The translations under genes were made by a program, and so were the position numbers. 64,000 nt of DNA from Naegleria gruberi (Eukaryota), in the NCBI GenBank assembly GCA_000004985.1, contig GG738859.1; one strand, given 5' to 3'. The notes under the pieces were generated by a model. The model was given only the letters and a program-made list of their open reading frames with translations, was not told the origin of the DNA and searched no databases. Every line of letters starts with the position of its first letter. Within the stretch, counting starts at the first letter, position 1. Shown here piece by piece: positions 1 through 64,000 of the stretch.

Positions 1-586
1 ACGAGCAAATTCTTTCAATTGTCTCAAGAAGTAATTCTTAATTCTCATATCTGGATGAGCTACTTGCATAAAGGCAAGAGTACTCTCCAATGACCAAGAA
101 TATTTGAAAATAAAATAAGCAGCAATTAAAACACATGACCTGGAATTTCCATGAAATGATTGCACTAAAACACACTCTCCCTTTTCGAATGCTTGATCTA
201 TAAAATTGGCTACACGTGTAATATTTCTATCTCTACTATCAAGTAAAACGGTTGTTGGAACATCCCTCCAAGGAAACGTTAAATATTCAATTCCATGATC
301 AGCATATATATTTGCAGCTTCCAATCCAGCACAGTTTACTACATGGCTCACTTTGTTTGAAAAAAGGAATTCATCATCTTGTGCAGCAATAGAATTTCCT
401 ACAAATAGACCATCCATAATTCTGACTGCTAATAAAAGTGTAGGACCAGGAGTTTCTACTGGTACAAAGTGTGGTTGCTGTTGTTGGTTTCCAAAACTTC
501 TGGAATTAGTTATTGTATGGTTGAATAACCCTCCTCCAAAATCGGAGGAAGAATTATTAGCAACCTTTGATATAATATTATTCATC
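1..586 (-). CDS. dual-specificity phosphatase-like protein (DSPc fold); catalytic Cys replaced by Ser, so a probable pseudophosphatase; 3' end runs off the window
   Basis: Minus-strand reading frame from ATG (plus 584-586) to position 1 with no stop. Translation MNNIISKVANN...MDGLFVGNSIAAQDDEFLFSNKVSHVVNCAG...KGECVLVQSFHGNSRSCVLIAAYFIFKYSW. It matches the DUSP signature VxVHCxxGxSRSxxxxxAY except C->S and H->Q. It invalidates the overlapping plus ORF 353..610. Confidence 0.5.
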
Positions 587-720
587 AGAGACGATTATTT
601 CGCTGAATAGTCTGACTATCAATGATGTCCTTAATGATGGGTTTTCTCTACTACAGTTAGCTTACAAGTTGTATTTGTAAATAGAGGGAACGGCTACTGT
701 TATTTTTTTAAAATTTAAAA

Positions 721-951
721 ATGTTTTCCCGCCATCAAGCAACAAGAGTAGAGCTGAATCAAGATGATGTAGCAGAGTTTGAAAGGACGATACAGGAAAT
801 CGAAGATGAATTATCAAGAAACCAACAAGTAGAGTCCGATCAACAACAACAAGTAGATAATAATTTAAATATTCCTTCTTCATTAAATAATAGAATTGAC
901 CCAAATACAGATATTAGAATTGGTTATTCGGAACAACAAAGAAGATTTTAA
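721..951 (+). CDS. small hypothetical acidic/Q-rich ORF (76 aa); weak support
   Basis: ATG-initiated ORF in the spacer between two minus-strand genes. Its stop (949-951) abuts the stop of the AK6-like gene (952-954). No recognisable domain. Confidence 0.2.
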   Translation: MFSRHQATRVELNQDDVAEFERTIQEIEDELSRNQQVESDQQQQVDNNLNIPSSLNNRIDPNTDIRIGYSEQQRRF

Positions 952-1561
952 TTATTTTTGAATTTTGTTTTGTACAAGAGAAACAATGAATTCTGCATTA
1001 TTATTCAGATCCATTATTGTGATGTTTTGCTTTTCAAAAACAATTTCTGGTTTGTAACTTTCTTGAGCTTCATCCGAACAAACTTGGAAAATTTCGCAAT
1101 CAACATTTTCTTGAACTTTTTGTTCTGAATATCCTCTCTTTTCCAAACGTTTAAATAATACATCAGGATCACATCTTAAAACAATAACAAAATCAATCCA
1201 TCGTTCTGGGAATAATTCACTACTATGATAATCGATAACAAATCCCTTTTCCAAATCAGATAATTTTTCTTCTAAATGATCCAAAAGTTTATCTTCATCA
1301 AGAACATATGTATCTCTTTCACTATCGAATTCCTCAACAAATTGTTCACCTTTAGCAATTTCGGAAACATTCAAATATTCATAATTTGTTAAATTAAGTT
1401 TTTCCTTTAAAGAATTGATAACAGCTTCTCCCATAACAGTCTTTCCGACACCAGGGGTTCCTGTCTCATAACGATATGTTAGATGATGATTTACTTCAAT
1501 GTCCAAACTTACCTGTGATGAGGATATTTGGATAGGTACGAAGATCTGGTGATGTTTGCAT
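952..1561 (-). CDS. AK6: adenylate kinase isoenzyme 6 / Fap7-like nucleoside-triphosphatase; 2 exons (1513..1561 and 952..1460), 52-nt intron 1461..1512
   Basis: Spliced product MQTSPDLRTYPNILITG|TPGVGKTVMGEAVINSLKEKLNLTNYEYLNVSEIAKGEQFVEEF...DYHSSELFPERWIDFVIVLRCDPDVLFKRLEKRGY. It has the P-loop GTPGxGKT and the AK6/Fap7 layout. The intron is gtaagt...tctaacat...acag. The track ORF starts at GTG 1578 and reads through the intron. Confidence 0.7.
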
Positions 1562-1612
1562 TTTTTAATTGAATTCACTCAAAAATTATTTGAAGTGCCA
1601 AATGTTATTTAT

Positions 1613-3703
1613 TCAGTTTTCTTCATCACTCATGGTACCATGTTGTTCTTTTGTTAATACTTGATGATCTTGTTCCTCTTCTTGCTCTGACTCATCCTGT
1701 TCTGATCTATCCTTAGTATCTGAAAAGACATAGAGTATGTGACACTCTCCACGACCAATATTTTTCATACTATATGAATTGAATGGTGGAATATGAATTA
1801 CAGATCCAAGTTTCATTTGGATGGCTGGGTTTGTATGTACAACGACGGATGCCTGACCTTTCAAAATATATAAAACCTCAGATTGGGTACTAGTATTGGA
1901 GCTTGGTTTTATACCACCAGGTTGAATTATTATTGTTCCTACACCTACACCCTTCTCTGTCAATGAACTGTAGATTGAAAGTTGTGCTGTATCTTCATTA
2001 GCTTTGATGGTAGCATAACCACCAGCCTTAGTTTCATCCTTTCTGAATTTGAAATGTGAACTTTGATGCATTTGGGCAGTAGCATAAATTTTAACATCCT
2101 CCTCTTCGCCAAACTCATTCATAACTTTGTAGATTCCATCAGTTACATCACTAAGTGGATCAACTTTTCTCTTTCTTGGCTCTACAGGAGCCTTCTTCTT
2201 CTTTTCTGGTTCTGTAACAACTGGTTTGACTTTCATTAGTTTACCAGCTTCCTTAGGCAAAGGTCTTTCATTTTCCCAAAATTTACATGGTTTAGTGACC
2301 TTTCTTCTCAATCTAGAATCCACAGAGTTACTTGTTTGAATGCCCAATGGATCTGTTCCATTATCAACATCCTCATTTTGAGTGCTGATAAGTGTTGTAT
2401 TGAGCATATCATTTTCTTCTTCATTTTCACTAACAGCAGCATTGAAATCTTCGTCGTCTTTGTAAACCTTTTCATTCACTTCTTTGGCTTCCTCGTCGTC
2501 TGTTTCATCTACATTTTCTATATCTTTTAAAAGAGCTTCTCTGAGTACATATTTTTCTCCAATCAGCTCTGTTTGCTTTTGGGAAAGTTTTACTTCTTCA
2601 TCACGATAAAAGTCTCGCCCTAAATCCACATTAGATTTTTCCAGCTGAGTAGGTCCAATACCAGAGTCCTCTAGTGTTGCTTTCGGTTGAGAAGATTTAT
2701 CAGATTCGTATTCAGATTCTGATTCAGGTTCTGATTGAGGAAGCGATGCAGGGAAACTTTTAAGTGCTTGTTTTTGTTGCCTAGATTTTAAACTTCTTCT
2801 ATTTTCTCTGTCATCTGATTCATCGTCATCTTGTTCTTCCTCAGAGGATGAGGATTTCTCATAAATATATTTCTTTGTTTTCCTAGGTTCTGATATCTTT
2901 CTTTTCTTAGGTTCTGGTTGGAATGTTTGTTCCTCCTGCTCTTCAAAAAGATTATCGAATGCATGATCATCATCTAAGCCTCCTTGTTCAATATCAAATG
3001 TAGGTGTAGGTGTAGGAGGTGCAATGATATCTGCAGCTTCTGCTGGTTGTTCTTCTTCCCTGAAGGTGTCTAGAACTGGTGAAACAGGTGGTAGGGATAT
3101 TTTAGGTGAATCGGGTTTCTTAGGTTGCTTAATTGTGACAGTTGGTATTTTCACAGAAGTGTCATCCTCGGAAGATGATGTGACATACTCCATTGAAGTT
3201 TTATCAATTTTAAGAGCTTCATCTGGAGATTGTTCATCACCTGATGAACGAAAAGTAACAGCTGTCTTTGAGCTTAGCATACTCATGGTATCATCACTAT
3301 CATTCATAGTAATGTTTGATAATGACAATACACTCGATTGGTCATCTCTATGTAATTGTTGATTAAAGTTCTGATTATTGTTTGCTTCAAAGAAGGCATT
3401 CGGATCAACAGAGTCGGTATTTACAATTATTTGTCCAGATCTTTTACCAATATTTTGGAAAGCATTCTGTGATGCCAACACATCATCATAACCTTCTCTT
3501 TGGCGGGTTCGTGGAATATAACCAGTACCTTCTCTTGTTTGTAAGGCTGATCTTCTAGGTGCTCTTTCCGCAAATAGTGCTGCTGTTAATGATGCAGATG
3601 GTGGTCCCATTATTGGTGGTTGTTGGTTGTTGGCATTTGATGATGATGGTTGTTGGTTACTATTTGATGCCGAAGGGAAACCATCTTGTCTTTCATTATT
3701 CAT
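1613..3703 (-). CDS. CENP-C/Mif2-like kinetochore protein: long disordered acidic/Ser-rich region, CENP-C motif, C-terminal cupin domain
   Basis: ATG at plus 3701-3703; the track start 3718 is TTG. A CENP-C-like motif SRLRRKVTKPCKFWENERP lies at about 2215-2325. The C-terminal cupin-like block is IYATAQMHQSSHFKFRK...GYATIKANEDTAQLSIYSS...GTIIIQPGGIKPS...VLYILKGQASVVVHTNPAIQMKLGSVIHIPPFNSYSMKNIGRGECHILYV. Stop is TGA. Confidence 0.5.
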   Translation of the reverse strand: MNNERQDGFPSASNSNQQPSSSNANNQQPPIMGPPSASLTAALFAERAPRRSALQTREGTGYIPRTRQREGYDDVLASQNAFQNIGKRSGQIIVNTDSVDPNAFFEANNNQNFNQQLHRDDQSSVLSLSNITMNDSDDTMSMLSSKTAVTFRSSGDEQSPDEALKIDKTSMEYVTSSSEDDTSVKIPTVTIKQPKKPDSPKISLPPVSPVLDTFREEEQPAEAADIIAPPTPTPTFDIEQGGLDDDHAFDNLFEEQEEQTFQPEPKKRKISEPRKTKKYIYEKSSSSEEEQDDDESDDRENRRSLKSRQQKQALKSFPASLPQSEPESESEYESDKSSQPKATLEDSGIGPTQLEKSNVDLGRDFYRDEEVKLSQKQTELIGEKYVLREALLKDIENVDETDDEEAKEVNEKVYKDDEDFNAAVSENEEENDMLNTTLISTQNEDVDNGTDPLGIQTSNSVDSRLRRKVTKPCKFWENERPLPKEAGKLMKVKPVVTEPEKKKKAPVEPRKRKVDPLSDVTDGIYKVMNEFGEEEDVKIYATAQMHQSSHFKFRKDETKAGGYATIKANEDTAQLSIYSSLTEKGVGVGTIIIQPGGIKPSSNTSTQSEVLYILKGQASVVVHTNPAIQMKLGSVIHIPPFNSYSMKNIGRGECHILYVFSDTKDRSEQDESEQEEEQDHQVLTKEQHGTMSDEEN

Positions 3704-4036
3704 TTTTGAATTATTCAACTGTTATTACTATTAAATATTTGTTGATGAGTTATATGTTGTCGATGTTTGATGATTCTCAAAACACCCAATACTAACGACT
3801 AACTTGGGATTGGAGTGGTTTTAAACGAGCAACACGCGTAGATTTGCACAATTTAAATATTTTTTTCAAATTTGTAACGGTAAATAATAATTGCCAATTG
3901 TGTTAAATACTAATAATATTATTGTTTTGAATTATTACTTAAATATTCGTTTTATTTTATAATAAACAATAATTTACATTTCTAACATTAACTTCTTGCG
4001 TTGTCAATAATATTATTATTTGAAACAGTCTAAAAA

Positions 4037-5214
4037 ATGATCTCATCATCAAATGCAAAAAACGAAGATAGTGCCTCTTCGGAACTTCCTCTCCCAACAC
4101 CATCATTAGATTCATCATTCAAAAAGAAGGTTGTGGAGAGAAATTGGCTCAACCAAGAATCTGAAGGAATTGATGCTTTAGCAAAGATTGAATTTCTTCA
4201 TACAATTCCAGGAGAGAAACAATTAAAATTTGTACCAAGTGTAAAGGGCATATTAACCAATGCTGTTCACAAAATGGCACTTCAACTCACTCAACAACAG
4301 GATGAAATTATCAATGAAGCAATGAATTTTTCTGCAACTAGTTTGATTACACAAAGTGGATCTAAAGCCATGCTCATGTCAAATGCTGTTGGAGCTGCGG
4401 AAGAACAACACAGAGGATCAATATTTGTTAGTTTGAGTAATGCATCTGATTTTGATCCGAATATGGGATTTGATGCTATTAAATCCAAGTTAACAAAGAC
4501 TAATAGTATTATCACAAAGGATATTCAGGAAATGTTTTTAAAATCAATTCCTCCTTGGAATTTTGTTACACCACACCATAACTGGAAAGTAAGACTACAT
4601 GGAGATAGAGCTGTTGGTAAAACAACTTTACAGAAGAGTCTTTGTAGAATGGGTAAGTGAAATAATTTTATTGTCAAATTTTTGACATTTGAAAGATACC
4701 AATATTGAACAACACAGAAATCAACATTGTGATACTGTTGGATCAATTACAACAAATACATTAATACCAATCAAATGTATTGATTCTGTGAAATGGATAG
4801 AGCTAGAAGTGATCGATGTTGGTGAAGGATGTGCTATCAATAATCCAATTTATAATTCATGTAAGTAATTTATATTAAGAATATCACTAATATACTTTGT
4901 TGGATCTATAACCAGACAATGTTAATGATTTTCATGCCCATCTAGTCTTATTTTCCATGGGACATTTTCAAAGCTTCAAGAATGCCAAAAACAAAATCAA
5001 ACAATTGAAAAAACAAACCAACAATATTATAGTTGTTGCAACTAAATCAGATGCTTTCCAAAATTTCCAAGTTACAGACATTGACATTGCCACTCTAGTG
5101 AAGGAATTTGATTTAAAGACTGCAGTATGTCTAGTCAATAGTCATGCTCAATTCGGATCTGAAAATAGTACCTATACCATTGTGGAAGAGTTGGCCGACT
5201 TACTTTTGGCCTAA
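4037..5214 (+). CDS. atypical small GTPase-like protein with ~175-aa N-terminal extension; 3 exons (4037..4652, 4696..4860, 4946..5214)
   Basis: Introns of 43 nt (gtaagtgaaat...tttgaaag) and 85 nt (gtaagtaattt...cactaat...catctag) restore one frame. G-motifs present: G1 GDRAVGKTT, G3 DVGEG, G4 TKSD (for NKxD), G5 NSHA. The track shows the exons as separate ORFs 4037..4660 and 4957..5214. Confidence 0.5.
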
Positions 5215-5323: not shown

Positions 5324-8300
5324 ATGCCACCATCACGATTTAGAAAGGTAATTGAGGATGATGAAGAGGAAATTCCTACTACAAGAGAGGATGTGGAGAG
5401 TGAACAAATCAAAGGTAGGAAAACTGAGAAGAAAGGAGGAATCAAAAGGAAAATTGTAGAATCTGATGATAGTAGTAGCAGTGAAGATGAGTTGGACGAA
5501 AGGCTTGAGTTGACTGATGAAGACGATATCGAATCTCTTTCTTCCAGAGATTCACCTGTGGTAGAATATGATGACAATGATGAGGAGATGGAAGAATATC
5601 CACAGTATAATAGATTATTGGAGAGTAAGTTTGCATACTAGCAATTCATATAAAATCTCTTATATTCAAAGTTGAAAAGGCTATTCTTGATAAACTTGAA
5701 GGAAGGTCTTGTGATCAGCAATTGATAATTCACTCCATTGAGATGAAAAATTTCAAATCATACAAGGATAACACACTGGTTGGTCCTTTCACCACTGGAT
5801 TAAATTGTATCATTGGATCTAATGGATCTGGAAAGAGTAATATTATCGATTCGATTTGTTTTGTGCTTGGATTTGAGTCTAAAGAGTTAAGAGCTAAGAA
5901 TCTAGACTACCTCATCAATGATCAGTGTTCATCTGATGAAGAGTCATTTGTCAAAATCAACTTTAATGTGATGAATGGTAAGAATGATTGTTTCAAGCAG
6001 TTTAGTATTCAAAGAAAGATTAAAAGAAATGATCACACAAGCTCCTACCATCTCTCTTCACCAAATGAGGAATCCAAAAAGATAACAAAAAAACAAGTGA
6101 GGGAATTACTGAATGAGTATGGAATTGACTTTGATTATCCTGATAGATTTATTGTTATGCAACATAATACCATAAAGATGGTAAAGCAAAACCCTTTAGA
6201 AATGCTGTTCCATCTTGAAAAATTATTTGGTACTGATAGAGTTCAAATTGAAATTAAGCAAGTTCAGGAAGATATTACAAAGCTCAGATCCGATATTGAA
6301 ATACATGAGAAAGAAAAGAATGATTGTGAAAAGGATCTAGAGTTATTAAAACCTATAGTCGAACACTATCAAAACTTTCAAAAGTTAGAAAAAAAGGTGG
6401 AGGAGACAAAAGCATCCATAAAAGAGAGTGAGCTGAAATGCCTAACATTCAAACTAGACAAAAGCAAGAGGGAGCTAAAGTCAATTACTTCTGAAATATC
6501 TTCTTTAGAAAGTAATCGTTCAAACTCAAAGATAGAAGAACAGCAACTGAATGAAAGTACTCAGAAACAAGTAGAGAAAATGGACACCACAGAAAAGGAA
6601 CTAGACCAGATAAAGAAAGTCACATCCAAGATTCAAAAGAATCTACTGAGGGTAAGACTTGAGAATGATTCCTACAATCAAAAAGTTCAGCACTTTGAAA
6701 TGGAATTAGAAAGAACCTCAAAGGAGTCTATTCAATTAGGAGAGGAAAAGAACGATTTGAATGTAATGAATTGTCATACAGAGGAAGATATTAAGTATTT
6801 AGAGAATTGCATTAACAGTCTTGAAAATGAGATTAATAGATTGACATCAAACATAGATGATGAATCTCAACAAATATTGATAGATTTGCAAAGAGAATTA
6901 AACGAGATAGTAACAAGTTATCGTTATACAGCATTAACATCTCGTAGTGTTAAATTAAGGGAATTGGAGGAGCAGATCGAAATTTTGAATCAAACATTTG
7001 ATCAAAAACAAAAAGAGAAAGTGGGCTTAGAAAATTATATGGAAGAAATTTCTGAATTGAAGAAATTAGCAGACTCAGAAGCCAGCATATTAGGAGATAA
7101 CTTGAAGAGAGTCCAAGAATCAATAGAACTCAAAAAGAAGCAGAGAATCAAGATAGAAGATGAAATATTTGACTTAGAAACATCCTCGATTCAAAAAGAG
7201 GAAGTTAATTCTCTTTTTTTAGATACCATAAAGAAAATTAGATCAGGGATAGATGGATGTTTTGGAACAATTCCAGAGATTTATAGAATCACTGATCAGA
7301 AATATGCAGTTTCCGTAAACTCAGTGCTTCATCCTTATTTAAAGAATACAGTAGTTGTTTCAAGCAGAGAAGTGGCATTGAAGGTAGTGAAGTTTTTTGA
7401 AAATGATCGTGCAGGATTGGTCAGTTGTGAAATTCTAAATGAGCTGAAGTTGTTGCCAAACCAATCCAGCACTAATCCTTTAGAATTGAAGCCACTTATT
7501 GAAGTTCTGGAATGTGAGGCTCAATACAGACCCTTACTAGAAAAGCACACCCAAGGATGGTTCATTACTGATTCGATAGAATGTGCAATGAAATACTCAT
7601 ATCATAACGGCAAAAGAAGAAATATTGTTACTCTCGATGGAAAGATATTTAAAAGCTTTGGAGAAATATCTTGCCACTATTCCAAAGATACTACCCCTCA
7701 CCAGATCAGTACTCAGTATTCTAAACTCAATACAAATTATTCAGATCATAACAAAGACATTGAGTATTTGTCTATTTTGAAAAAAAAGTTTAAAGATCTA
7801 GAGGAAATATGTGAAAGTCTCATCATGTCAATGAATGACATTAAGCAATCCATATCAGAAAAGGAAGTATTAACAAGAAATTATCAATCCCAAATCAAAA
7901 AAATTGGCTCTTCACTCTCAACTCTTTCCAGAAAATTGATATCTATCAAGAAGGATTTAGAGAGCAAACAGGAAACCTTCAAAAATACTATTTTAGCTCC
8001 AACTGAGGAAGCAGAGTTATTAGAAATAGAGACAATCAAGAAAGAATTAGAAATGAAAATCCATACTATTGAGAGTGTCGATAACAGTGGAAATTCATTG
8101 CCGAACCTCAAGAAAACCTTGTCAGAAAAACAAAAGGAGCATACTGTACTCAACAAGTTAAAAGAAACACAAAGCAAGAGATTGAATCAAATATCAGCTC
8201 TATTATCAAACCTTGCAGCAAAAAGAGAAAAATACACTAATGAATTAGATATTTTCAGAAAAGAAAACAATCAAGAGGAATTAGATTCATTAGAATCAGA

Positions 8301-9204
8301 AGTAGACTCTCTGAAAAGGCAAAAAGGTAAACTCGAATCAAAAAAAGAGGATTATTGTAACAAATTAAAAGAATTCAGACGAAACATTAAAAAATTAAGC
8401 CAAATAATTAATGAGAAAGACCTTCAAATCTCTAGAAAAGTGCAAGATAAGGAAAAAATCCAAGAGGATATCGACGAGCTAAAGTTGTCCATTTCTAAAA
8501 TAGCACAAAGTAATATCTCTTTGAAAGTAGACACAAAACTAGACTTGGAATTAGAGGAAAGGAGAAGGCTCAAACTGATATCTGAGCTCAAGCACATAAA
8601 TTCAGAACTGGAAGGTATACAAGATAGTGTGGATAAAAATTGTTTAGAAAAACAATCAACAGCCAAGAAAAAGCTGAAATTCACTAATAAGAGGCTCAAT
8701 AGTATCAATCAAAGAATTGAGAGCCTCGAACTATTGGAGTCAAAATTTCTTACCTTACGATATGAATTGTTTCACAAGGTTATTTCCAAAATTAATGAGA
8801 ACCTCTCTCAAATATTCAGAGATTTGAATAACAACTCAAACTGCTACATTTCTTACTATGAAGACAAGAAGACATTATTTGAAAAGGGTGTCAATATTTA
8901 TTGCAAGTACGATTCAGAGTGGAAAGAGTTTAGTAAGCTGTCTGGTGGTCAGAAAAATCTGGTTTGTTCTGTTCTTTCTAAAGCGCTAATGAGATGTTTT
9001 TCAACCAGTATTTGTATCTTTGATGAATTATGTAGCAGTTTAGACACCATCAATGTAGAGAAATTAGCCAAGCTCATCAAAAGCAGCTCTCTCAAAACTC
9101 AGTTCATTTGCATATCATTCAAGTTTTACGAGAAGGCAGATCATATCATTGGAGTATACCACCAAAATGGTGTTTCTTGTACTGTCCCATTCTCTAATAA
9201 ATAG
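5324..9204 (+). CDS. SMC-family ATPase, condensin type (SMC2/SMC4-like), with probable acidic N-terminal exon (5324..5624) joined by a 47-nt intron (5625..5671) to the main exon (5672..9204)
   Basis: Main exon: LIIHSIEMKNFKSYKDNTLVGPF...CIIGSNGSGKSNIIDSICFVLG (Walker A). Long coiled coils. Hinge: GTIPEIYRITDQKYAVSVNS...VVVSSREVALKVVKFFENDRAGLVSCEIL. C-terminal LSGGQKNLVCSVLSKAL...ICIFDELCSSLD (signature plus Walker B). The first ATG in the main frame (5743) would remove the conserved N-terminal strand, arguing for the spliced 5' exon MPPSRFRKVIEDDEEE...YNRLLE (acidic, as in SMC4 N-extensions). The track start 5722 is TTG. Confidence 0.55.
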
Positions 9205-9207
9205 AAT

Positions 9208-13715: not shown

Positions 13716-14537
13716 TTAATTTCCACCAGTGACACCTGAGATTGTACTTGTGAGAGATCTCTTAACAAAGAATGCCATGATCTGGTCCTTGGCACGACCA
13801 AGTGAGCTTCCTTCTTCATTGAAATGTCTATATAATAAGAGAACAATGATAACTTGATAAACTACATTGAATGCCCAAACAGCAGCCATAATAAAGCTAT
13901 AAATCATGGCAAATGTACCATCAGATTTAGTGATTAATTGCAAAGCTCCAACCAATCCACAAGCTCCCATTGATGGAACTCCAATAGCCATGAATAATGA
14001 AAAGATAATACCAACCAAATATGAAATGAATGCCAAAACATATCTTAAACGATCAGTTGACCAATTTGAAATTTGAAACCTACCTGGCAGAGTTCTTGTG
14101 TGCACAAGCACCATATGTCAACCAATATTGAGCAAAGAATGCAATAACTGGATAAAAGATAATATAACATCCACCAAGAGCAACTCCTCCAATATAATCA
14201 TAAACTCTACTAGTGACAAGAGCAATGATCAATCCGACAATGTTCAAAATTGCAATAATAATAAAAGCAATATATTCTCCCTATTTTGATGATGATTACA
14301 ATTATCATATTGTTAGATCACGATCACAATATAACCTACCAATCCCATCAAGGCTAAATACTTTTTTCTACCACAAGCAGAAATACTGTGATAAACTATA
14401 GGATAACATGGTGGAAAATTCTTAACTTTCTTTTGTTGTGGTTGTTCTACTTCCTCTTCAGAAGCAGCACTTTCATTGTCGTTTGTTTCCTCCGAAGCGG
14501 TCTGCTTCTTCCCGAAGAGACCTTTAACGTAATTCAT
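13716..14537 (-). CDS. SCAMP-like (secretory carrier membrane protein) 4-TM protein; 3 exons (14340..14537, 14084..14280, 13716..14043)
   Basis: Exon 1 ...KNFPPCYPIVYHSISACGRKKYLALMGL carries the SCAMP NFPP/CY motif. Introns are 59 nt (gtaggttata...gatctaacaa...caaaatag) and 40 nt (gtaggtttcaaa...cgtttaag); splice phases are consistent. The product is about 240 aa with four TM helices. There is no N-terminal NPF repeat region. Confidence 0.55.
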
Positions 14538-16130: not shown

Positions 16131-16154
16131 TTTTTATAAGAATATTTTCTTTAT

Positions 16155-33279: not shown

Positions 33280-33435
33280 TGGCAGGAGTGGATTTTCATC
33301 GAGTGCAAACGGTGATTTGTCTTGTTAATATTTCAAATCATCATTTCAATAAAATCATCATCACACCATGTAAAAACAGTTGTGTTGTTATAATAATTTT
33401 GTTGTTTTTTGATAATTAGAGACATTAAAAACAAA

Positions 33436-47566: not shown

Positions 47567-48685
47567 TTAATTGAATGGAAGTTCTGTTTCATCGAATTGG
47601 AATTCCTCTTCAACAGTCTTAGGTTCTTCTTGAGTTTTTTGTTCTTGTACAATACCATCAGTTTGTTTCATTTCACCATCAATACTAAGTTCTCCTTGTT
47701 TAGCTCCACACCATGTTGTTGTGAATTGAATAGTTTGTCCTGCCACCAGTTCATGTAAAAGTTTTTCATTTGGAATAAAAACAGAGGCATTGAACATGTT
47801 GAGCACTTTACAAAAAACTCTTCTAGTGTTATAATTAACATTTGTGATTGTACCTCTCAAAATTGTTCCGTATGTTGGTGAAAACAAGATAAATGTTGCT
47901 GCAATAGTTACTGCTGAAACGGATGGGTTAGTATCAAACTGTATCACTGATCCTTCTTCCAAAATTTTAACATTTTCAACACCCATTACAAATCCTCTCA
48001 ATTTAGTATCATATCCATTTACAAGGTGATAGGCTCTATCGAAAAGTTGTTTCTCTATTAATTTTTCCATTTCTGTTTGGGTTGTTTGTTTCACTTCTTG
48101 TTCCCCTGATAGGAAATCACTTCCATTAGAAAGTGCCATATGTGTTTGATAAATTCCACCATAATTATAAAGTGGGTATGTCATGACGGCTCTCCTTTTC
48201 ACAAAGAAGACATTGTAGTCAAACTCTTCTGGAAAGAGTTTTCTTATTGTTTCTTCGTCTCTAAAGAATTTCGAGAATTTAGGAGCAACTTGTTTGATTT
48301 GGTCTTCACAAATTGTTGTGAATTGAGGCTTCTTCTTTCTGTATTCGTCGTGGCTAAATTGTGTTCTGATGAAATTCCAAAAAGTTGGTGTGTGTTCAAG
48401 ACGAGAGATGAAACTAACAAGGGTCAATGTACGATAAAAGACAGACTTGTTAGAATCAAAGAATTCACAAACAATATTTGAGAGTTGTTTCTTTTGTTGT
48501 TCATCCATTTCCACAAGACCGGAATCTGTTTTTACATTTTCTTTAACAGCAGGTCTTTCCTTTTCTCTAAAAACCTTCTTCTTTTTAGATTCATTGTTTT
48601 CTTGTTGTTCAACTACGACAACTTCCTCATCGACAGGCAACTCGTCCGCTTTTCTCTTCTTGTCTTGGGCCATTTTTTTCATCAA
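47567..48685 (-). CDS. hypothetical protein (~372 aa) with K/E-rich N-terminus and possible C-terminal OB/S1-like beta domain
   Basis: First ATG gives MKKMAQDKKRKADELP...; the track start 48688 is TTG. Single ORF. C-terminal region KILEEGSVIQFDTNPSVSAVTIAATFILFSPTYGTILRGTITNVNYNTRRVFCKVLNMFNASVFIPN is beta-rich. No confident family assignment. Confidence 0.4.
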   Translation of the reverse strand: MMKKMAQDKKRKADELPVDEEVVVVEQQENNESKKKKVFREKERPAVKENVKTDSGLVEMDEQQKKQLSNIVCEFFDSNKSVFYRTLTLVSFISRLEHTPTFWNFIRTQFSHDEYRKKKPQFTTICEDQIKQVAPKFSKFFRDEETIRKLFPEEFDYNVFFVKRRAVMTYPLYNYGGIYQTHMALSNGSDFLSGEQEVKQTTQTEMEKLIEKQLFDRAYHLVNGYDTKLRGFVMGVENVKILEEGSVIQFDTNPSVSAVTIAATFILFSPTYGTILRGTITNVNYNTRRVFCKVLNMFNASVFIPNEKLLHELVAGQTIQFTTTWCGAKQGELSIDGEMKQTDGIVQEQKTQEEPKTVEEEFQFDETELPFN

Positions 48686-48827
48686 CAAAATTTTGAATTT
48701 TGAGCAACAACAATTGTTCCTTCATCAGAGAGAAGAATTAAATCATCACAAACGCAAACAACTTGTTTCATAGTATATGTGATTCATGTTCGTTTTAACA
48801 ACAACAAATAGAAATAAAGTACAAGGT

Positions 48828-49268
48828 TTAATGCTTCAAGAAGTGAAGATCAACAGCAGAAGGTAACAATGCCTTCATACTGCTTTCCAAAACTTCATTA
48901 GTTTCCGAATTGACAATTAAAACAGGGAAGTCATTAGTCTTATCATCAACAAATTCTTGGAGAACTTGTCTACAAGCACCACAAGGTGTAACTCCAATGT
49001 TTGTAGAAACAACAATACCCTTGATACAATGACAATTGTTGGAGACCATCTTCATGACAGCACATCTTTCAGCACAGATGGTGAGGCCATAACTTTGGTT
49101 TTCAACATTGCAGCCAGTATAAAGTTGTCCATCGTCTCCTAGAATGCAAGCTCCTACATGAAACTTAGAGTATGGACAATAGGCAATTTTTTGTGTGTCA
49201 ATGCTCTTGCTAATCATGGTTTCCTTGAGAGCTGGATCCTTTTGGAAGATGGATTGTTGTTCTTGCAT
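48828..49268 (-). CDS. cytidine deaminase (homotetrameric CDA type, zinc-binding)
   Basis: ATG 49266-49268; 146 aa. AYCPYSKFHVGACILGDDGQLYTGCNVENQSYGLTICAERCAVMKMVSNN...TPCGACRQVLQEF has the CDA zinc ligands (C/H-AE...PCGxCRQ) and spacing. Confidence 0.85.
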   Translation of the reverse strand: MQEQQSIFQKDPALKETMISKSIDTQKIAYCPYSKFHVGACILGDDGQLYTGCNVENQSYGLTICAERCAVMKMVSNNCHCIKGIVVSTNIGVTPCGACRQVLQEFVDDKTNDFPVLIVNSETNEVLESSMKALLPSAVDLHFLKH

Positions 49269-49597
49269 TTTGTGTATTGATTACAGTAGTACTACTAGTA
49301 AGGATGCTTGTTGTATTTACTTGTTTGGTTCTGAAGTCCAAGGTGAAGAGAGCGAGGCTAATTCAAAATAAAAGGCTTTGCCCGTGTGATCCAGATATTT
49401 TTTTCTAATAAACAACACATTTTTGCAGTATCAAGATATTAATATCGTGGGAGCAGCAAACCAGGGTTTTCTTTCCACTTAAACCCACTTTAAAACAAAT
49501 GCCATAAAGACATCAAGTTAGAGTTAATTTTCATTATCATCTCCAAATTTGGTGGATTGAATGCGAACTTTTGTGAGAATTATACGCTTCGTAAGGA

Positions 49598-49768: not shown

Positions 49769-51930
49769 ATGAGCGCCAGAAGAGAAGCCGATAGCATCAC
49801 ACTCACACAATTAAAACAATTAGGATGTGAAGTTGAAGAGTCTGTTACTTCTATGGCTGATGTAGATAAATTCTTATTGTATAAAGCTACCGTTATTTGT
49901 CTTAGAGCTATTGCAAGAGGAAATAACAGAGAACCTGATGATTATCCGGAAGACCTTCCTTACGAAATTAGTACTTGTTTTAGAACCTGTACTGCTCTCA
50001 CCCAGTCTATCAAGGTTTGTAGATGACAATTAAAATTATATTGGAAATATTAATTATTTGGAATTAATCGGATCATCAAAATAATTAGGAATACGGATTT
50101 AGAGGAGATATGACTTTTGATCAATTTTTATATCCTAATGAAATGGTTACCCGTCATATTCTTATTTGGTTAGTTGAACAAGCAACATCTTTTATGACTG
50201 ATCAACAAAATAATGAAGGTGCTAACGAAGGAGAAGCAAGTAAGAGACAAACTGTTCAAGCCAGAATGAACTCGGTCCTTTCATTCTTTGTAAATTCTAC
50301 TTGGACTGTGAAAAATCAAAATGGTACCGAAAAAGTGTCAATTGATGTAACCTCTTCAACAAAGAGTTGGGATAATGAAAATATTCGATGGAATAGTTAT
50401 CCTGTGAATTCACAAGCTTCTATGAATGCCTTTTTGTTGGCTGCTTTGAAGAGTGGAGGTTTACCAACTGTTAGTAGAGATTCTGGACTTATGGAAAATT
50501 TAAAGTCAACATTTACTGTTGGAGGAAACGCTAATGATGAATTGTGTGAAAAACATGCCATGTTGTACTATAGAAAGTTTGGACCATACATTTCCGAACA
50601 AATTTTAGCAAAGGATCAAATGGCTTCCACTGTATTTGAAGAAAATGCTCGTGAATTATTATTGGAACAACAACGTGAGGACGAATGGAATGATTTGGGT
50701 ATTGATTCTGGATTAACTCGTGAAGAATACTTTAAACAAAAACAGCAAAAAATCAATACTAAGGTTTCAGATGTTCTTAAGGGAGGAAGTTCTAAATTTG
50801 TTGACAATGATGATTCTGCAAGCTCTGAAGATGGAATGCCATCCCTTTCTGACTTGTTGCAATCATTGAAGAATAATAGAAAGATTGATACATCATCAAC
50901 TTTCTCAAAGAGAAAACTCTTTGAAAATGAAACTGATGATGTGTCTAAAAAATTGCTCACTACCAATCCATTGGCTCCAAAAGAAAAGCAAAATGCAGCC
51001 AATATCGAAGAGGAAAAGAAGAGAAAGGAAGAGGAAAGACAACAAGAATTGGATGAATTACAATCTGTTTTGGATAAAGTTAATGAAAAGATTGATCAAG
51101 CTGAAACAGCTAAGGATACTCTTGTCTCAGAAATGAAAAAACTAGAAGAGGCCATCACAGAGGAAAAACAAAGAAAGAAACAATTGGAAGAGGAGTTTAC
51201 CATCAACAAGACTGCTGCTATTGTTTTGCAAGATAAGGAAAAGAACATTAAGCAATTAGAATCAATGACTGAACAAGCAGAACAACGATTAAAAACTCTG
51301 AAACAGGAATGGGAACAACACAGCACACCTCTGAAAGAAAGAGAAGCCATGTTAAAGGAAAAGATAAAAGATCAAAAGAACGAATACAAGGATTTGGTAA
51401 ATGTTTCAAAGGAACTTCGTGAACAAATGAATGAATTGATTCATACCATTAGATCCAAGGAAGAGTTAATTTCAAAGAAGAAACAAGAATATGAAGAAAT
51501 GCCAAAAGAATCAGATCGTGCCAGTTATGTTACCAGAATTTTGGATGTTGTTAAAAATGTGGAAAAGCAAAACGAAGAAATTAGCAAGGTACTTAAGCAA
51601 AGCAGAGAGTTGAGTGACAACACTAGTGATTTATCAGAAAAGCTCGGTAGAACCTTCCAAGAAAATGAAGAAAATATCTTCAAGGAAGCTCAAAAGGATA
51701 CTGAATACAAGCAACTTTACAAAGATCTCCTTGAAATTAGAAGTCTTTACGAAGCTCTAATTGAACAAGTTCAATTGAACGGCAAGGCTTTGAATACTAT
51801 CAGAGATTTGGACAATCAAATTGATGTCATTTCTGAACGTAATGATACTCTAAATATTGAGAAGATTACAAAGGATTTACAAACAATCCAAGAAGAGAAC
51901 GTAAAATTGCAAAAACAACTCATGAAGTAA
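49769..51930 (+). CDS. CCDC22: CCDC22-like protein (Commander/CCC complex subunit); 2 exons (49769..50014, 50089..51930), 74-nt intron with GTTTGT donor
   Basis: Exon 1 MSARREADSITLTQLKQLGCEVEE...PYEISTCFRTCTALTQSIK; exon 2 EYGFRGDMTFDQFLYPNEMVTRHILIWLVEQA.... The N-terminal FLYP(S/N)E motif region matches. A long coiled coil follows. C-terminal DRASYVTRILDVVKNVEKQNEEISKVLKQSRELSDNTSDLSEKLGRTFQENEENIFKEAQKD...ALIEQVQLNGKALNTIRDLDNQI parallels the CCDC22 C-terminus as recalled from memory. The track ORF 49694 start is TTG. Confidence 0.55.
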
Positions 51931-51952
51931 AAATTTTGAAATAAACCCTTAT

Positions 51953-53158: not shown

Positions 53159-53863
53159 ATGTCATCAAGTACACAACCTAATCCATCACTGCCTAGTAAT
53201 ACAACACCATCAAATACGTCATCGGGAATAAATCCAACAGGAAATAGTAATACAAACGGGTCTAATCAAGCAAATGTTGCTGACAAGGATATTCAAAACG
53301 TACCTAAGGATGCTATCATTGTTGAAAAGATTTTACAAAGTATGGGAATTAATGAATTCGAACCAAGAGTTATTGAACAATTATTGGAATTAGTCTATAG
53401 ATATATAACGGAAGTTATTGAAGATTCGTATGTTTATATGGACCATGCTTCAAGGTCTGATTTGGACTTGGAAGACATCCGATTAGCCATTCAAACAAGA
53501 GTAAATCATTCATATACAGAGCCACCACCAGTTGAGGTTAGTAGAATAAGTTACAATTCGTGATGTTAATGACAAATGATTAACAAAATATAGTTTTTAC
53601 TTGAAGTGGCCAGTCAGAAGAATTCACAACCAATCCTCTTACCTAAAAAACAACGTGTATTATTACCTCCACAACATCATTGTCTCTCTAATAGAAACTA
53701 TCAATTTGCTAAGAGTTCACCAAGTGACGATCTAGGATCTAGAAAGAGACGAAAGCAATCCGAAGCCATGGTAATCGATGAAAATAATGATCAACTAGAA
53801 GTACAACAAAATGAAAATTCACTCTCATCATACGGAGGTGAATCTAGAATGACTGATGAATAA
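53159..53863 (+). CDS. TAF9: TFIID subunit TAF9 (histone-fold); 2 exons (53159..53536, 53594..53863), 57-nt intron with GTTAGT donor
   Basis: VPKDAIIVEKILQSMGINEFEPRVIEQLLELVYRYITEVIEDSYVYMDHASRSDLDLEDIRLAIQTRVNHSYTEPPPVE|FLLEVASQKNSQPILLPKKQRVLLPPQHHCLSNRNYQFAKSS. Compare TAF9 [97 protein letters not shown]...CLTAPNYRLKS. The N-terminal 45 aa are N/S/T-rich. Confidence 0.75.
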
Positions 53864-53975: not shown

Positions 53976-55051
53976 ATGCCAATTCTAAGAGGAGGTAAAC
54001 AACCAGTACGAGCAATAACTTTCAACCCTAAAGGAAAATTACTAGTCGGAACCAAAGAAGGAACTTTGAGACTACACAATGAATATCACACAGCAGAAAA
54101 TACCACCACAACACCATCGAGAGTAAGTTTTTAGATTGGAGCCTTTGATCCGAGGCAAATTATCAATAGCAACCTAGAGATGTTGAATATCAAGGAGCAA
54201 ACAAAGGAGATGTTACACAAGTGAAATTCAATCCTTGTTGTTCACATCAATTTGCTTGTATTACATCAAAGGGATGTTTGAGAATTTTCGATACAAAACA
54301 AACAACATATACTGGAGGAGCTCCAACAACACAATTGAATGTAAATGATCTTTATTTGAAATGTTTTGATTGGTGTCCAACAGGACATAGAATGGCTGTT
54401 GTAGATTCAAAGAATAATATTACAATATATCAAATAGATGGTACACATCCAACAAATATTGGAGAAGTAACATCTAGCTCAAAACTCACTCTGAAAGAAC
54501 GTGTGAGTTTTCCAGTGGAAATTACTGACCTGATGTGGGATAGGAAAGGAAAAACTTTATACATTGCTAGTGAAAATGGACGTATTTATTATGTGAGGGA
54601 GGACGAAAAAATTGCAACCTATGTTTCAAAAGTATTCAACCCAATGATTGACGAAAACATTAGAGAACCATATATTCTAGTTGGAAGGTCAGCAATAACT
54701 TGTTTGGATATATCACATGATGACAAGTATCTCATAGTAGGTTCAGAAGATTCAGCTGTCTCAGTATTTGAGATACAAGATTTGATTTGTGTACATAATT
54801 TCTCTGATATAGGATCTCTTGTGACCACTGTATCTGTACGATTATTACAAGGAAAGTATTTGATATTATTTTCCACAAGGAATGATGAGAAGAAAGTAAC
54901 TGGTATTTTCTTAATGAATTTAAATGACGGAAAGATGTTATTCAAGACTGAGCGTGACGGTATTTCAAAAGCAATTTTACATCCTTCAATGAATTATATT
55001 GCCTTTTGCCAAGATAGCTCTCCTTATGATGTGATAGTGGAGGGTTTTTAA
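53976..55051 (+). CDS. WD40-repeat protein (~343 aa); 2 exons (53976..54122, 54170..55051), 47-nt intron
   Basis: Exon 1 MPILRGGKQPVRAITFNPKGKLLVGTKEGTLRLHNEYHTAENTTTTPSR. Intron gtaagtttttagattggagcctttgatccgaggcaaattatcaatag. Exon 2 QPRDVEYQGANKGDVTQVKFNPCCSHQFACITSKGCLRIFD.... Repeated WD-like blades (..VAV.DSKNNITIYQ, ..LYIASENGRIYYV, ..LIVGSEDSAVSVFE). The track ORF 54221 starts at GTG. Confidence 0.55.
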
Positions 55052-56343: not shown

Positions 56344-56479
56344 ATGTAAATAAACTCCAATTGTAATTTATAATTAAATTGTTTCTTAATTTTCCAATTC
56401 TATTTTAAAAATTGAATAGTTTCCTAGTGGTTTGTGACAAGCACTCCTTCAATATTTTACAAGTTACTATCAACATTAT

Positions 56480-59772: not shown

Positions 59773-62760
59773 TTACTTTTTCTTTTTAAGTGGAGAGCCA
59801 GATTTTAGAATCTTTTTCTTCTTTGGCTCAATTGATGGCGCTCTAGGTTTGCTTTGTGGTTGTTGTTTGCTTAGGGCAGGTGTTGTGTTTTTAACTAAGG
59901 ATCTCAGTTGGCCTAGTTCCTTTCCATGATGATTGATATCCTTCATGAGATCCATCATCTTTTGCTTGTAGTCTTTGAATTCATTGTTACATTCTTCTTG
60001 GAGTTTTTCAAAATCCTTCAATCTGGTTATGGAATGGGTGTTAGAAGTGTCTGTGTCTTCAGCTCCTGAAATTTCGAGTTGAGAAAGGTCTTCTTTTTTT
60101 CTTCTTACAACAACAGTACTACTGACGTTGTATTCGACCTCATCCTTCTTTTGATCCTTAGTTGGAGGGTGAGATAAATTAGGGGAATGATTTGTTTTTT
60201 GTTTTGATATTTCTACTACAGCCTTTTTGAAACGTCTCTTCTTTCTCTTAATTGTGCTACAGGATGATCCACATTCAGACTCTTCAAGTGAAGAATCAGA
60301 ATCAGAGTCTGTATCATCACTTGAATTGCTTGAATCCTCTATATGTGATTGAGATGTTTCATTCAGCTTGGGTGATGCCATCTTTGGTTCGGCTTTTCTA
60401 AAGAGTGGTTTAATACTATCAGATGTTTCTCTAACCTCTGAATCTCTTGATTTCGTTGAATCTCTTGTTACTCTTGAGCCACCATTGATATTTGGAGAGG
60501 GGTTCATTACATTATTAATGCTCTCTAAATGTTCACATCTTCTTTGGAGCCTTTCATTCTCTTTCTTTTCATTGTCAACTGTTTTCCTGAGCTCGATTAT
60601 CTTTTCTTCAAACATTTTCTCTCTTTTCATTATTTGATCCTTTAGCTTTTCATACTCTTCAGAAAACTTGGATTTTTGTTTTTCGGCTATCAACTGCAAT
60701 TTCTTTGATCGTTTTCTTTCTTCCTCATATTTGATTTTGTACTGATCTAATTGCTCTTCGACTGTTTTTTTAAGATTCAAAAACTTGGCTTCATATTCCT
60801 CAATCCTTTTTTCGCTTTCTAATTTCTGATCCCTTAGTTGACTTTCACTCTTGAGCAACTCTTTTACTCGTTGATTGTATTTTTCCTCTTCCTGCAATAT
60901 GATGTTTTCTTTTTCATTACTTAGATTAACAAGGGTTTGTCGCAGTTCTTGATAGTTTCTTGCCATATCTTTGGATTCACTTTCCAACTCCTTGATTTTT
61001 TCCTCTTTTTCCATGTAGCTTCGTCTTTCCTCTTCAATTTTCTTTGAGAGGGCTTCCAAGGTATCGTGTTGTTGTTGAATTCTGTTCATGTTAGAATTAA
61101 ATTAACATATGACAACTTACTGACTAGTTAATTTTTCATTTTTCTCTTTTAGTTCCTTGGATTTAACCTTATGGTTTTTAACTGTTTCATCAATCTTTTG
61201 TGAAAGCTCTTCATTATATTTCCTCAAATCATTGACTTCTGTTCCTAGCTGCTCAGCATGTTTTTTAATTTCCCTAGAGTGATTTAACAATTCGTCATAT
61301 CTCTTTCTAATATTTACATAAGATTTTTCCTTTTCCTTCCATTCAGTCTCCTTTTCCTTAAGAGTTTTTTGAAGTTGATTTGCTTCGTCTGTTTTGGCTT
61401 GTAATTTTTGTCTTAGTTGCAAAAGCTGCTCGTTTTGCTTCTTTGTTTTTGAACTTAAATCTGCTGACTCATTGCATGATGTTATTATTCTCTCATTCCA
61501 TTCCTTTTCTTTTTGTTTGAACTCTATCCATTTCTCTTCGTATAAACCTCTAAGTGCTTGGAGTTCTAAATCTTTTTCTCGTTCAATAGTTGAGGTTCTT
61601 TCTTCGTGAGCTTCAAGAAGTGCTTCATACTCCACAACTTGATTTGATAGAGATGCTAGTCTTCGTTCATAATCTCTTAACAAAACATCTTTCTCCAGAT
61701 CTCTTTTCTTCTTTTCCACTCGAACTCGATCATCCTCAATTCGTTCTGGTTGTTGGTTGATTGGCCTTTGCTTTTTGGTTTGTGGTTGAGTTTCCTTAGC
61801 CTTAGGTAATTTAGGAGCAATTATTGGAGAAACATCACTAGGTTCAGGGCTTGCAAAAGTAACATTGGGGGTTATTTTTTTTTGAGCTTGGTTTTCAGCT
61901 ACCACTTGTTGGGCAATTTCTGAAACAACGGCCTTTGGAGGAATTTTAGTTTCTGTTGAAGCTTTTACAGAAACAGGTCTTGTTTTCATTGTATTTACAT
62001 TGTCTTCAGTTTCTGTTAACTCAATTTGAGTTGTTTCATCGTCGCTACATTGAGAAATGTCATCAAATGTGAATGGTGTTGCACCCTGTTTTTTTCTTTC
62101 TTCGTTTTCCCTTCTATGTTTCTCCAGTAGTTGATTTACTGATGTTGGTGGTTTAGAAACTACTTGTTTCTTGGGTATGTATTGCTCTTCCTCCTCCTCT
62201 TCCTCAATGTCTGTGTTTTCAATTTGATCATCCTCTGTATCGCAATAAGTTTCTATCACAACTTGTTTGCGATTAGTATTATTTAGTTTTTTGCCTGGTT
62301 TAATTTCTTCAACATCCTCAATTAGAACGCTGATATCACTGTTTTCATCATGAGATGATTGAAGCAGATCATCTTGTATTGAGGAGAGACTCTTCATCTC
62401 TGCTTGCATTTCTCTCAGTGAGGAAAAGATGGCTGATGGTTTGATCAGTTTTTTGTTTCCTTGTTGTTCGTGACAAGAATCTACCATTACTGGAGATTCC
62501 ATGTCTGTATTTTCCTCTTCCAAATATTCATCTTCATCATAATGTTGATTCTCCTCATCATTAATTTCCGTATATTTAAATAATTTTGTTTTTGATGTTC
62601 GTATTGATGATGTATTTTCGATTGAAGGGGTTTTCTTCCTTAGTGATGATACATTTACTTTTTCCTTGTTAATCTGAGAGTGAGTGGTATTGGGCGAAAG
62701 TGTTGTTTGTCTTATTGATGAGCCAAGCACTCGTTTTGTTTGTTGAGAATTTTCATACAT
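59773..62760 (-). CDS. long coiled-coil protein (~983 aa); 2 exons (61121..62760, 59773..61081) joined by a 39-nt intron
   Basis: ATG 62758-62760. The upstream track ORF ends ...KLTSQ-TAA inside the intron gtaagttgtcatatgttaatttaattctaacatgaacag (61082..61120; branch ttctaac). Splicing gives ...KLTS-Q-IQQQHDTLEALSKK... in frame with track ORF 59773..61089. That ORF's apparent ATG lies inside the intron. The sequence is K/E/Q-rich and heptad-rich throughout, with a basic C-terminal tail. Confidence 0.5.
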
Positions 62761-62811
62761 TTTTTTCTTATTGGCGGGAAATTTTTGGCGCCAATTAACT
62801 ACACATATTTA

Positions 62812-64000
62812 TTATTGAAAATGTGAAGGGTACTTTGCCAAATAGGATTGAAGTGATTCTTGAATTTCATCAGTAAGTGATTCAAGTAGAATTTTTTTCT
62901 GTTCTCCAGATTCCATATTCTTAATTGAAATTTTACCTCCCTTCAATTCATCCTCTCCAATAATAATTGTGAGGAGTGATTTACTTTGTTGGGCTTGTTT
63001 CAATTGTTTTGATAAATTTCCCTTCTCAAAATAATTGATTGTAATGCCTTGTTTACGTAATTGTTGGGATAGAATAATAGCAAATTTAGACATTTCCTGA
63101 TCAATAGCTTCATTTGTGCCTCTGACGACTGAAACGAATACTTTTGGAATGTATTCTGGTTGAGGTTGAGTATTTCCCTTTTCCAGTTCTTCCATAATTA
63201 AGGAAAGTCTTTCAAATCCACTAGCCCAACTAGTTAGATGTTAAATTTTGAAATATTTTGTTAATATCAAAACAGAGTTAACTTACCCAACAGCTGGAAT
63301 TTGTTGATTGGCTCCTAATTGTTGAGATAATGTATCATAACGCCCACCTGCGAGAATGGTTGATTTGGCACCAATAACATTGCTCTTAAATTCAAATGTT
63401 GTATGGGTATAGTAATCAAGACCTCTAATAAGAGATGAGTTAATCTTGTATGGAATTTTCAACCATTTCAATCCTAAAAGTACATTTTCAAATCGTTTTC
63501 TATTTTCCTCACTTTGAAATTGAGCTAATTGGGGCATATCATGTTTTTCAATCAAATTTGCAATAAAATCTTCATCCTGTTTAGAGTCGAGAATTCTCCA
63601 AATTCTTCTTGGATTATTTTCTGCAATGGCAATTTCAACTCTAGCTCTACTGTCCTTTGAAAGATTTTCCTCCTGATCAAATAATTCCTTATTCTTTTTA
63701 ACATATTCTAAGAGAGCATGTTGATAATTTTCACGTTCTTTCAAAGTTCCAATAGAGTTAATTTCCAATTGAAATACATCATTTCTACCATCAAGAACAT
63801 TTGTTAAAAATTGATAAGCCATTTCCAAAGATTCCAAATCACTTTGATAATGATCACTTCCTAAATATTCCACTCCAAATTGATGAAATTGACGATATCT
63901 TCCTTTCTGTGGTCTTTCGTATCTAAACATTGGTCCATAATAGTAAATTCTTTGTTTTGTTGAGAGAGCATTTTCGATAACACTTCTCATAATTGGTGCT
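62812..64000 (-). CDS. histidyl-tRNA synthetase (class II aaRS), 5' end beyond window; 57-nt intron 63230..63286
   Basis: Upstream exon (63287..>64000): ...RIYYYGPMFRYERPQKGRYRQFHQFGVEYLG...GLDYYTHTTFEF...ILAGGRYDTLSQQLGANQQIPAVG. This is HisRS motif 2/3 (FRYE...QKGRYRQF; GGRYD). Downstream exon (62812..63229): WASGFERLSLIMEE...VFVSVVRG...LLTIIIGEDELKGGKISIKNMESGEQ is the anticodon-binding domain. The intron is gtaagttaactctg...catctaactag. Confidence 0.8.

Follow-up and report, generated by a model that had tools for sequence, protein, structure and literature searches.

In yeast, introns follow the consensus GTATGT ... TACTAAC ... YAG, and canonical introns have reportedly been recognised in the heterolobosean amoeboflagellate Naegleria gruberi since the genome paper of Fritz-Laylin et al. 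in 2010. The N. gruberi genome has a guanine plus cytosine (GC) content of 33%, contains 1.7 exons per gene and encodes 15,708 genes (PMC8296547), and it is reported to share conserved intron positions with other eukaryotes (PMC3488318). Among its relatives, the introns of Acrasis measure 9-95 bp, with 1-2 in each intron-containing gene (PMC11589745), and mapping in N. fowleri was run with a minimum intron length set at 30 bp (PMC8296547). Here, we deal with a 64,000-nucleotide (nt) stretch of N. gruberi DNA, from contig GG738859.1 of assembly GCA_000004985.1, which is referred to throughout as the window, and with the short introns that interrupt its protein-coding genes. A first-pass annotation of this DNA had proposed that such genes are systematically mis-segmented by a six-frame track of open reading frames (ORFs), and this proposal is borne out alike by exact matches to NCBI proteins, by the continuity of Pfam domains and PDB structures, by conserved intron positions and by the way in which the same genes have been split in a public metagenome.

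The window is almost certainly gene-dense nuclear DNA of N. gruberi strain NEG-M, in which 17 genes harbor 21 canonical U2-type GT-AG introns of 39-129 nt. In all, 39 protein genes and three tRNAs were rebuilt within the 64 kb, of which 85.7% is coding, and the ORFs are densely packed on both strands. Seven of the encoded proteins, including cyclophilin (EFC46220) and RIB43A (EFC46225), are letter-identical to NCBI proteins of strain NEG-M, all from a single contig of 530,355 bp. The window is the same DNA as the annotated genome (Fritz-Laylin et al. 2010, Cell 140:631, PMID 20211133), and both its GC content of 34% and its 21 introns in 39 genes fit the published values, whereas the mean intron length of about 56-57 nt lies well below the published genome average of 203 bp (PMC8296547). 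Short GT-AG introns with GTAAGT or GTAGGT donors, as found here, are also seen in the other Heterolobosea that were compared, namely N. fowleri, N. lovaniensis, Willaertia magna and Acrasis kona.

Coding stretches were mapped in all frames with a codon log-odds score trained on the 15 longest ORFs, and ORFs that showed coding potential 5' of their first ATG were flagged. All same-strand junctions were then read individually, with a targeted scan of the stop-to-ATG gaps of neighboring genes; listing all ORF-joining GT..AG pairs by brute force gave too much noise, and the codon-usage map with junction-by-junction reading was used in its place. When long ORFs were searched for in-frame introns free of stop codons, none turned up, and no convincing exons were found in the gaps at 41274-41850, 42337-42949 and 35468-36444.

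The splice signals are uniform over the set. All 21 introns begin with GT and finish with AG, and their donors are GTAAGT (10), GTAGGT (5), GTATGT (3), GTTTGT (2) and GTTAGT (1), with G always at +5, T always at +6 and, in 17 of 20 introns, A at +3. Only TAG, AAG and CAG serve as acceptor triplets, AAG in 7 of 20 introns. These are exactly the five donor hexamers and three acceptors that the first-pass annotation had listed. The median length of the 21 introns is 47 nt, and the mean is 57 nt for 20 introns or about 56 nt for all 21, while their GC content (n = 20) is 25% as against 34% for the window. Every one of the 21 contains an in-frame stop if it is retained, and removal of each restores a single reading frame; support from homology or annotation was obtained for 15 of the 21.

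The branch site is less regular. A YTRAY motif lies 4-25 nt from the acceptor in 16 of the 21 introns, compared with 7.6 in shuffled intron interiors, a count of 16 not being reached in any of 2000 shuffles; the remaining five introns have no such motif at this distance from the 3' end. The strict forms CTAAC or CTAAT occur in the same interval in 6 of 21 introns, as against 1.6 after shuffling (P = 0.0015). The rule given in the first-pass annotation, of CTAAC or CTAAT placed 5-15 nt before the acceptor, is thus only partly true, in that it reflects a real enrichment but overstates how often the strict motif is used. A strong donor hexamer and a CTAAC-like branch motif are features that these introns have in common with the yeast type; in contrast to yeast, the branch motif here is not fixed, the introns are far shorter and AAG is a frequent acceptor.

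A scan of the window with a loose donor, branch and acceptor grammar returned 58 matches, compared with 66 +/- 9 in Markov shuffles, and the grammar alone is therefore useless for detection. Similarly, the hexamer GTAAGT is not enriched overall, with 18 copies against 23.6 +/- 4.8 expected from dinucleotide shuffles, but its placement is far from random: 10 of the 18 copies serve as sense-strand donors that join ORFs, and none lies within 54.9 kb of sense coding sequence. The remaining copies comprise six antisense to genes and two in intergenic DNA. Taken together, the GT and AG ends, a GTRAGT-like donor that would be able to pair with U1 snRNA, the YTRAY branch motif and the restoration of frame and homology indicate that the 21 introns belong to the U2-type GT-AG class. 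Neither group I nor group II self-splicing introns, which run to hundreds of nt and have a conserved ribozyme structure, are indicated, the introns being 39-129 nt long and an Rfam search of the whole window at gathering thresholds having returned only the three tRNAs.

The 15 well-supported introns are those for which the spliced product matches an NCBI protein exactly, a Pfam or PDB alignment runs gap-free over the junction, or the position is shared with N. fowleri, N. lovaniensis or Willaertia. Five spliced models are letter-identical to NCBI proteins and account for seven introns. The gene for adenylate kinase 6 (AK6, Fap7-like), on the minus strand, has a 52-nt intron at 1461..1512 (GTAAGT...CTAAC...CAG) that follows an exon 1 at 1561..1513 and splits the P-loop at ILITG|TPGVGKT; its product of 185 residues equals EFC46325, and Pfam AAA_18 covers residues 13-142 in one stretch. 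The minus-strand SCAMP gene (14537..13716) has two introns, at 14281..14339 (59 nt, GTAGGT...TAG) and 14044..14083 (40 nt, GTAGGT...AAG), and encodes a protein of 240 residues identical to EFC46329, with residues 39-208 corresponding to positions 2-171 of the Pfam SCAMP profile in one stretch. On the plus strand, the ribosome-biogenesis gene Tsr1 (44513..47451) is interrupted at 44802..44848 (47 nt, GTATGT...AAG) and 44961..44999 (39 nt, GTAGGT...CTAAC...TAG); the product, of 950 residues, equals EFC46221, and Tsr1_G-like (residues 86-250) is unbroken over both junctions. Also on the plus strand, a THOC3-like WD40 gene (53976..55051) with an intron at 54123..54169 (47 nt, GTAAGT...TAG) gives the 342 residues of EFC46224, whose Pfam propeller extends over residues 9-329 in one stretch. 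The fifth is fimbrin (41273..39684, minus strand), in which a phase 2 intron at 41017..41061 (45 nt, GTAGGT...AATAG) divides DGIIF|CKLIN. The spliced fimbrin, of 514 residues, matches EFC46337 with 100% identity and coverage, followed by N. fowleri at 71% and then by Acrasis and Willaertia; the N. fowleri gene has at the same codon and in the same phase a GTAAGT intron that is much longer, at 285 nt. As regards AK6, 1616..3721 and 955..1578 had been considered as exons joined across an intron at 1579-1615; that interval holds no GT-AG pair, and the two are therefore separate genes, the real intron being that at 1461-1512.

Across the set, a single Pfam domain with continuous profile coordinates runs over 13 junctions. 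The Ras/Roc-like GTPase gene (4037..5214, plus strand) has introns at 4653..4695 (43 nt, GTAAGT...AAG) and 4861..4915 (55 nt, GTAAGT...CTAAT...CAG), and the Pfam Ras match, although weak at 28 bits, aligns residues 184-327 with profile positions 1-136 in a single stretch over both. As read from the sequence, the G1, G3 and G4 motifs follow in the correct order, one each on exons 1, 2 and 3; the exact model was not found in the NCBI set. In TAF9 (53159..53863, plus strand), a 57-nt intron at 53537..53593 (GTTAGT...TAG) separates PPPVE|FLLEV; residues 46-164 match positions 2-121 of TFIID-31kDa in a single stretch, and alignments to the structures of human TAF9B and TAF9 (7ktr, 30ff) are gap-free over the junction (tepppvefllevasqkn versus tsppprdflldiarqkn). 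The minus-strand gene for histidyl-tRNA synthetase, which has its stop at 62812 and extends past the end of the window, carries an intron at 63230..63286 (57 nt, GTAAGT...CTAAC.TAG); the junction, at residue 238, is bridged by an unbroken match to Pfam tRNA-synt_His that pairs residues 13-245 with profile positions 86-307.

A secreted thioredoxin-fold protein is encoded at 36445..36993 on the plus strand, with a 129-nt intron at 36625..36753 (GTATGT...CTAAT...TAG) at EFYAP|WCYYS. Pfam Thioredoxin spans residues 35-134 (profile 2-102) in one stretch, and the PDIA4 structure 3idv is gap-free over the junction (lvefyapwcyyskefa versus llefyapwcghckqfa). The protein has a signal-peptide-like N-terminus, and its active site reads WCYYS, a CxxS form, where WCGHC is usual.

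CCDC22 (49769..51930, plus strand) has a 74-nt intron at 50015..50088 (GTTTGT...TAG); the junction falls at residue 82, inside a continuous match of Pfam CCDC22_N to residues 6-113. A 2-nt deletion lies inside this intron in an ENA-metagenome strain of 99.7% identity. The metagenome contig, L004 (ERZ929261, 7,450 bp), comes from an N. gruberi-like strain and is 99.66% identical to 49763-56443 of the window, with 15 mismatches and 4 gaps. It also has a 2-nt insertion at 49803, inside the modelled exon 1 of CCDC22 and 34 nt past the ATG, and the alignment ends at 49763; the insertion may call the CCDC22 start codon into question or may reflect an assembly error. An Asn-GTT tRNA (49598-49670, plus strand) sits within the track ORF 49595-50023, some 100 nt 5' of the CCDC22 ATG.

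Besides that of fimbrin, intron positions are conserved in other Heterolobosea for IFT27 and for a gene of the Rad52/22 family, both on the minus strand. The phase 0 intron of IFT27 (16848..16155) lies at 16533..16587 (55 nt, GTATGT...TAG) and interrupts NEY|IDGL, a junction over which the Chlamydomonas structures 8ruy and 2yc2 align gap-free and Pfam Ras is unbroken. The same codon is interrupted in N. lovaniensis by an intron of 109 nt (GTAGGT) and in Willaertia by one of 40 nt (GTAAGT). The Rad52-like gene (16130..15659) has a 43-nt intron at 16013..16055 (GTTTGT...AAG), at FEK|HQ; N. lovaniensis has an intron at the identical place (FEK|GTGAGT...AAG|HQ), whereas the Willaertia orthologue has none and aligns straight over the junction. 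With these genes, all four junctions named in the first-pass annotation (fimbrin, thioredoxin, TAF9 and IFT27) are found at the motifs it gave and hold at the level of individual residues. Its broader assertion that all introns restore the frame and join conserved motifs stands for the frame, but for the motifs it extends to only about two thirds of the set, six introns being without homology support.

IFT27 and the Rad52-like gene are also close neighbors, separated by 24 nt (16848..15659). The spacer is 32 nt in N. lovaniensis and Willaertia magna (L002 10001-11293; L003 10001-11172), and the tight pair is conserved while the outer neighbors differ among the three genomes. From this arrangement, the two genes may be co-transcribed.

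The NCBI model of IFT27, P0134, is 200 residues long and has the same NEY|IDGL junction but differs elsewhere. It additionally removes 16660-16695 on the minus strand (GTTACA...AAG), a stop-free segment of 36 nt or 12 codons that encodes VTNEQQHDSIPK. In place of the G at +5 and T at +6 that all 21 introns share, the donor reads GTTACA, and the segment is kept in Willaertia, in N. lovaniensis and in a related ENA sequence. Since the orthologues retain it, the annotated mini-intron is probably spurious, an artefact of annotation. Many public N. gruberi models depart in some detail from the simplest reading of the sequence, and several look imperfect.

Within the cell, the spliceosome would remove the 21 introns from pre-mRNA. 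According to general knowledge of splicing, U1 would pair with the strongly conserved GTARGT-like donor, and a YTRAY-like branch point would be used shortly 5' of the (T/A/C)AG acceptor. An ORF caller of the bacterial type takes no account of this. Because the introns are AT-rich and each has an in-frame stop, it would end an ORF at every intron and begin a new one at whichever of ATG, GTG or TTG comes first in the open stretch that follows, and both split ORFs and false TTG or GTG starts would follow. A minimum of 11 pairs or groups of track ORFs each make up one gene, where the first-pass annotation had counted at least 9 pairs. Not all neighboring ORFs are to be joined: 48831..49280 and 47570..48721, considered as exons of one gene, were rejected as such and are separate genes, one for a cytidine deaminase and the other for an unknown protein. 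The effect of this type of calling is also seen in L004, which carries prokaryote-style gene calls and spans 49.8-56.4 kb of the window. There, TAF9 is split into proteins of 134 and 85 residues, the WD40 gene into 52 and 276, and CCDC22 into 57 and 606.

A separate matter is whether the TTG and GTG starts in the track represent real non-ATG initiation of translation. Such starts are numerous enough to raise the question, since 13 coding-strand track ORFs of at least 100 residues begin in this way (the first-pass annotation gave about 10), but an ATG is at hand for all 13. Eight of them are internal or 3' exons with the ATG in an upstream exon, as is the case for 952..1578 and 15659..16063, which are exon-2 frames; in the other five, an in-frame ATG lies 2-31 codons further downstream, immediately preceded in four cases by an A-rich leader. 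ATG is the start codon of all 38 complete models. The ORF tool takes the first ATG, GTG or TTG past a stop, and the TTG and GTG starts are artefacts of this rule; the probability that they reflect real non-ATG initiation is negligible.

The interruptions might alternatively be regarded as frameshifts, sequencing errors or the marks of decaying pseudogenes, as the unspliced reading indeed runs into a premature stop in every case and the window contains, at 28051-28085, one apparent true frameshift without splice sites. Frameshifts and decay do not account for 21 interruptions that all begin with GT, end with AG and share an extended donor, nor for the outcome of removing them, which yields annotated proteins exactly and gap-free homology. 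Moreover, other genera have three of the interruptions at the identical codon, with intron lengths that differ. This explanation is accordingly given next to no credence, and the view of the first-pass annotation that the unspliced stops only mimic pseudogenes is upheld.

There are nevertheless several points that weigh against a set of 21 spliced introns. The action of the spliceosome on them is drawn from general knowledge of splicing. The first-pass annotation had put the number at about 24 introns of 39-129 nt, and while its length range is exact, about 3 of its introns were not reproduced. For 10 of the 15 spliced models, no NCBI protein is identical letter for letter. The same holds, though, for 6 of 8 plain single-exon ORFs, of which five (g06, g16, g19, g22 and g24) are absent from the collection and the sixth (g31) is represented solely by an ENA metagenome sequence, so that a mismatch to NCBI is not evidence against an intron. 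Finally, 6 of the 21 introns, here called Tier B, have splice signals and continuity of the reading frame as their sole basis: 5625-5671, 23048-23088, 24700-24744, 32781-32825, 33321-33443 and 61082-61120.

Three of the Tier B introns are found in an SMC-family gene and a leucine-rich repeat (LRR) gene. The former, at 5625..5671 on the plus strand (47 nt, GTAAGT...AAG), restores the frame between an acidic N-terminal exon (ATG at 5324) and the SMC-family ORF 5672..9204. The SMC_N domain begins 20 residues past the junction and therefore gives it no support; there is an alternative acceptor at 5701, which would make the intron 77 nt long, and neither version has an exact NCBI counterpart. The LRR gene (33846..28051, minus strand) encodes 1875 residues, and its large ORF has a coding score of +18.3 5' of its first ATG. 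Its introns lie at 33321..33443 (123 nt, GTAGGT...TTAACAAG), recognised by signals and frame, and at 32781..32825 (45 nt, GTAAGT...TAG); homology searches gave no support for either, and relaxed Pfam searches found no domain over the LRR or g14-15 junctions. Beyond the stop of the LRR ORF at 28051-28053, another frame of the same P/E/V-rich composition runs on for 255 codons (27321-28085, minus strand), with a coding score of +14.3 for the part ahead of its first ATG, at 27938. The 32-nt overlap at 28051-28085 accommodates no GT-AG intron and may be a frameshift, an assembly error or the junction to a separate gene.

The other three Tier B introns have a GTAAGT donor, at 23048, 24700 and 61120, inside which the upstream ORF finds its TAA stop. 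The first, at 23048..23088 on the plus strand (41 nt, GTAAGT...TTAACAAG), is based on signals and frame and joins 20886..23047 to 23089..23521 in a coiled-coil protein with a DUF4795 match. The second, at 24700..24744 on the plus strand (45 nt, GTAAGT...TAG), came from the pair scan and joins 23597..24699 to 24745..25267, with no Pfam domain in support over the junction. The third, at 61082..61120 on the minus strand (39 nt, GTAAGT...CTAAC...CAG), has the best-scoring signal set of the window and joins 62760..61121 to 61081..59773 in a coiled-coil protein of 982 residues; no homology support was found over its junction.

Since in each case a proper TAA stop ends the upstream ORF and an in-frame ATG follows within 11 nt of the acceptor, these three could instead be pairs of adjacent genes, namely 20886..23051 and 23090..23521, 23597..24703 and 24734..25267, and 62760..61117 and 61089..59773. 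Genes on the same strand can be very close in this locus, as with the clearly separate proteins IFT27 and Rad52-like 24 nt apart, and no homology spans any of the three junctions. The fused products have no exact NCBI match, but nor do the split products, and the annotation therefore does not settle the three pairs. What tells against two genes is that the stop is in all three pairs the TAA of a perfect GTAAGT, a hexamer otherwise absent from sense coding sequence and only twice intergenic, and that an in-frame TAG, AAG or CAG acceptor is found 39-45 nt downstream each time, once with a CTAAC branch motif. Composition and coiled-coil character also carry on over the junctions. The nearby ATG codons are themselves at the level of chance: at roughly 2% per codon over some 9 codons, about 3-4 of 21 introns would be expected to have one near the acceptor, and three were seen. 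The absence of GTAAGT elsewhere in sense coding sequence, the in-frame acceptors and the chance count of ATG codons favor introns at all three places, and it is unlikely that some of these pairs are two genes. A further suggestion, that tight same-strand neighbors are partly co-transcribed and that the three stop-in-donor junctions would give a fused protein when spliced and two ORFs when unspliced, appears less probable again and is regarded as doubtful.

The remainder of the window holds a few features of a different kind. Like the Asn-GTT tRNA near CCDC22, the other two tRNAs found with Rfam, Phe-GAA (37126-37198, plus strand) and Thr-AGT (57243-57316, minus strand), lie in short intergenic spacers. 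The gap at 35468-36444, between the divergent pyridoxal phosphate (PLP)-decarboxylase and thioredoxin genes, is unusually long for the locus at 977 nt; it holds no convincing gene and no Rfam match, and both intergenic copies of GTAAGT fall within it, at 35494 (plus strand) and 36157 (minus strand). An ORF of 71 residues at 27113..26898 (minus strand) has a good coding score and a CaaX-like C-terminal box, CCWFCTIM, but no Pfam match.

The introns themselves are known biology. Several of these exact introns are already present in NCBI gene models and nothing about them is new, and the biological consequence is small, canonical introns having long been recognised in N. gruberi. A modest practical lesson is that bacterial-style ORF calls on eukaryotic DNA produce fragments and false TTG or GTG starts that have already entered public protein catalogues. 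For the organism, the 21 curated short introns could serve as a starting set for an improved splice model with which to re-annotate the genome.

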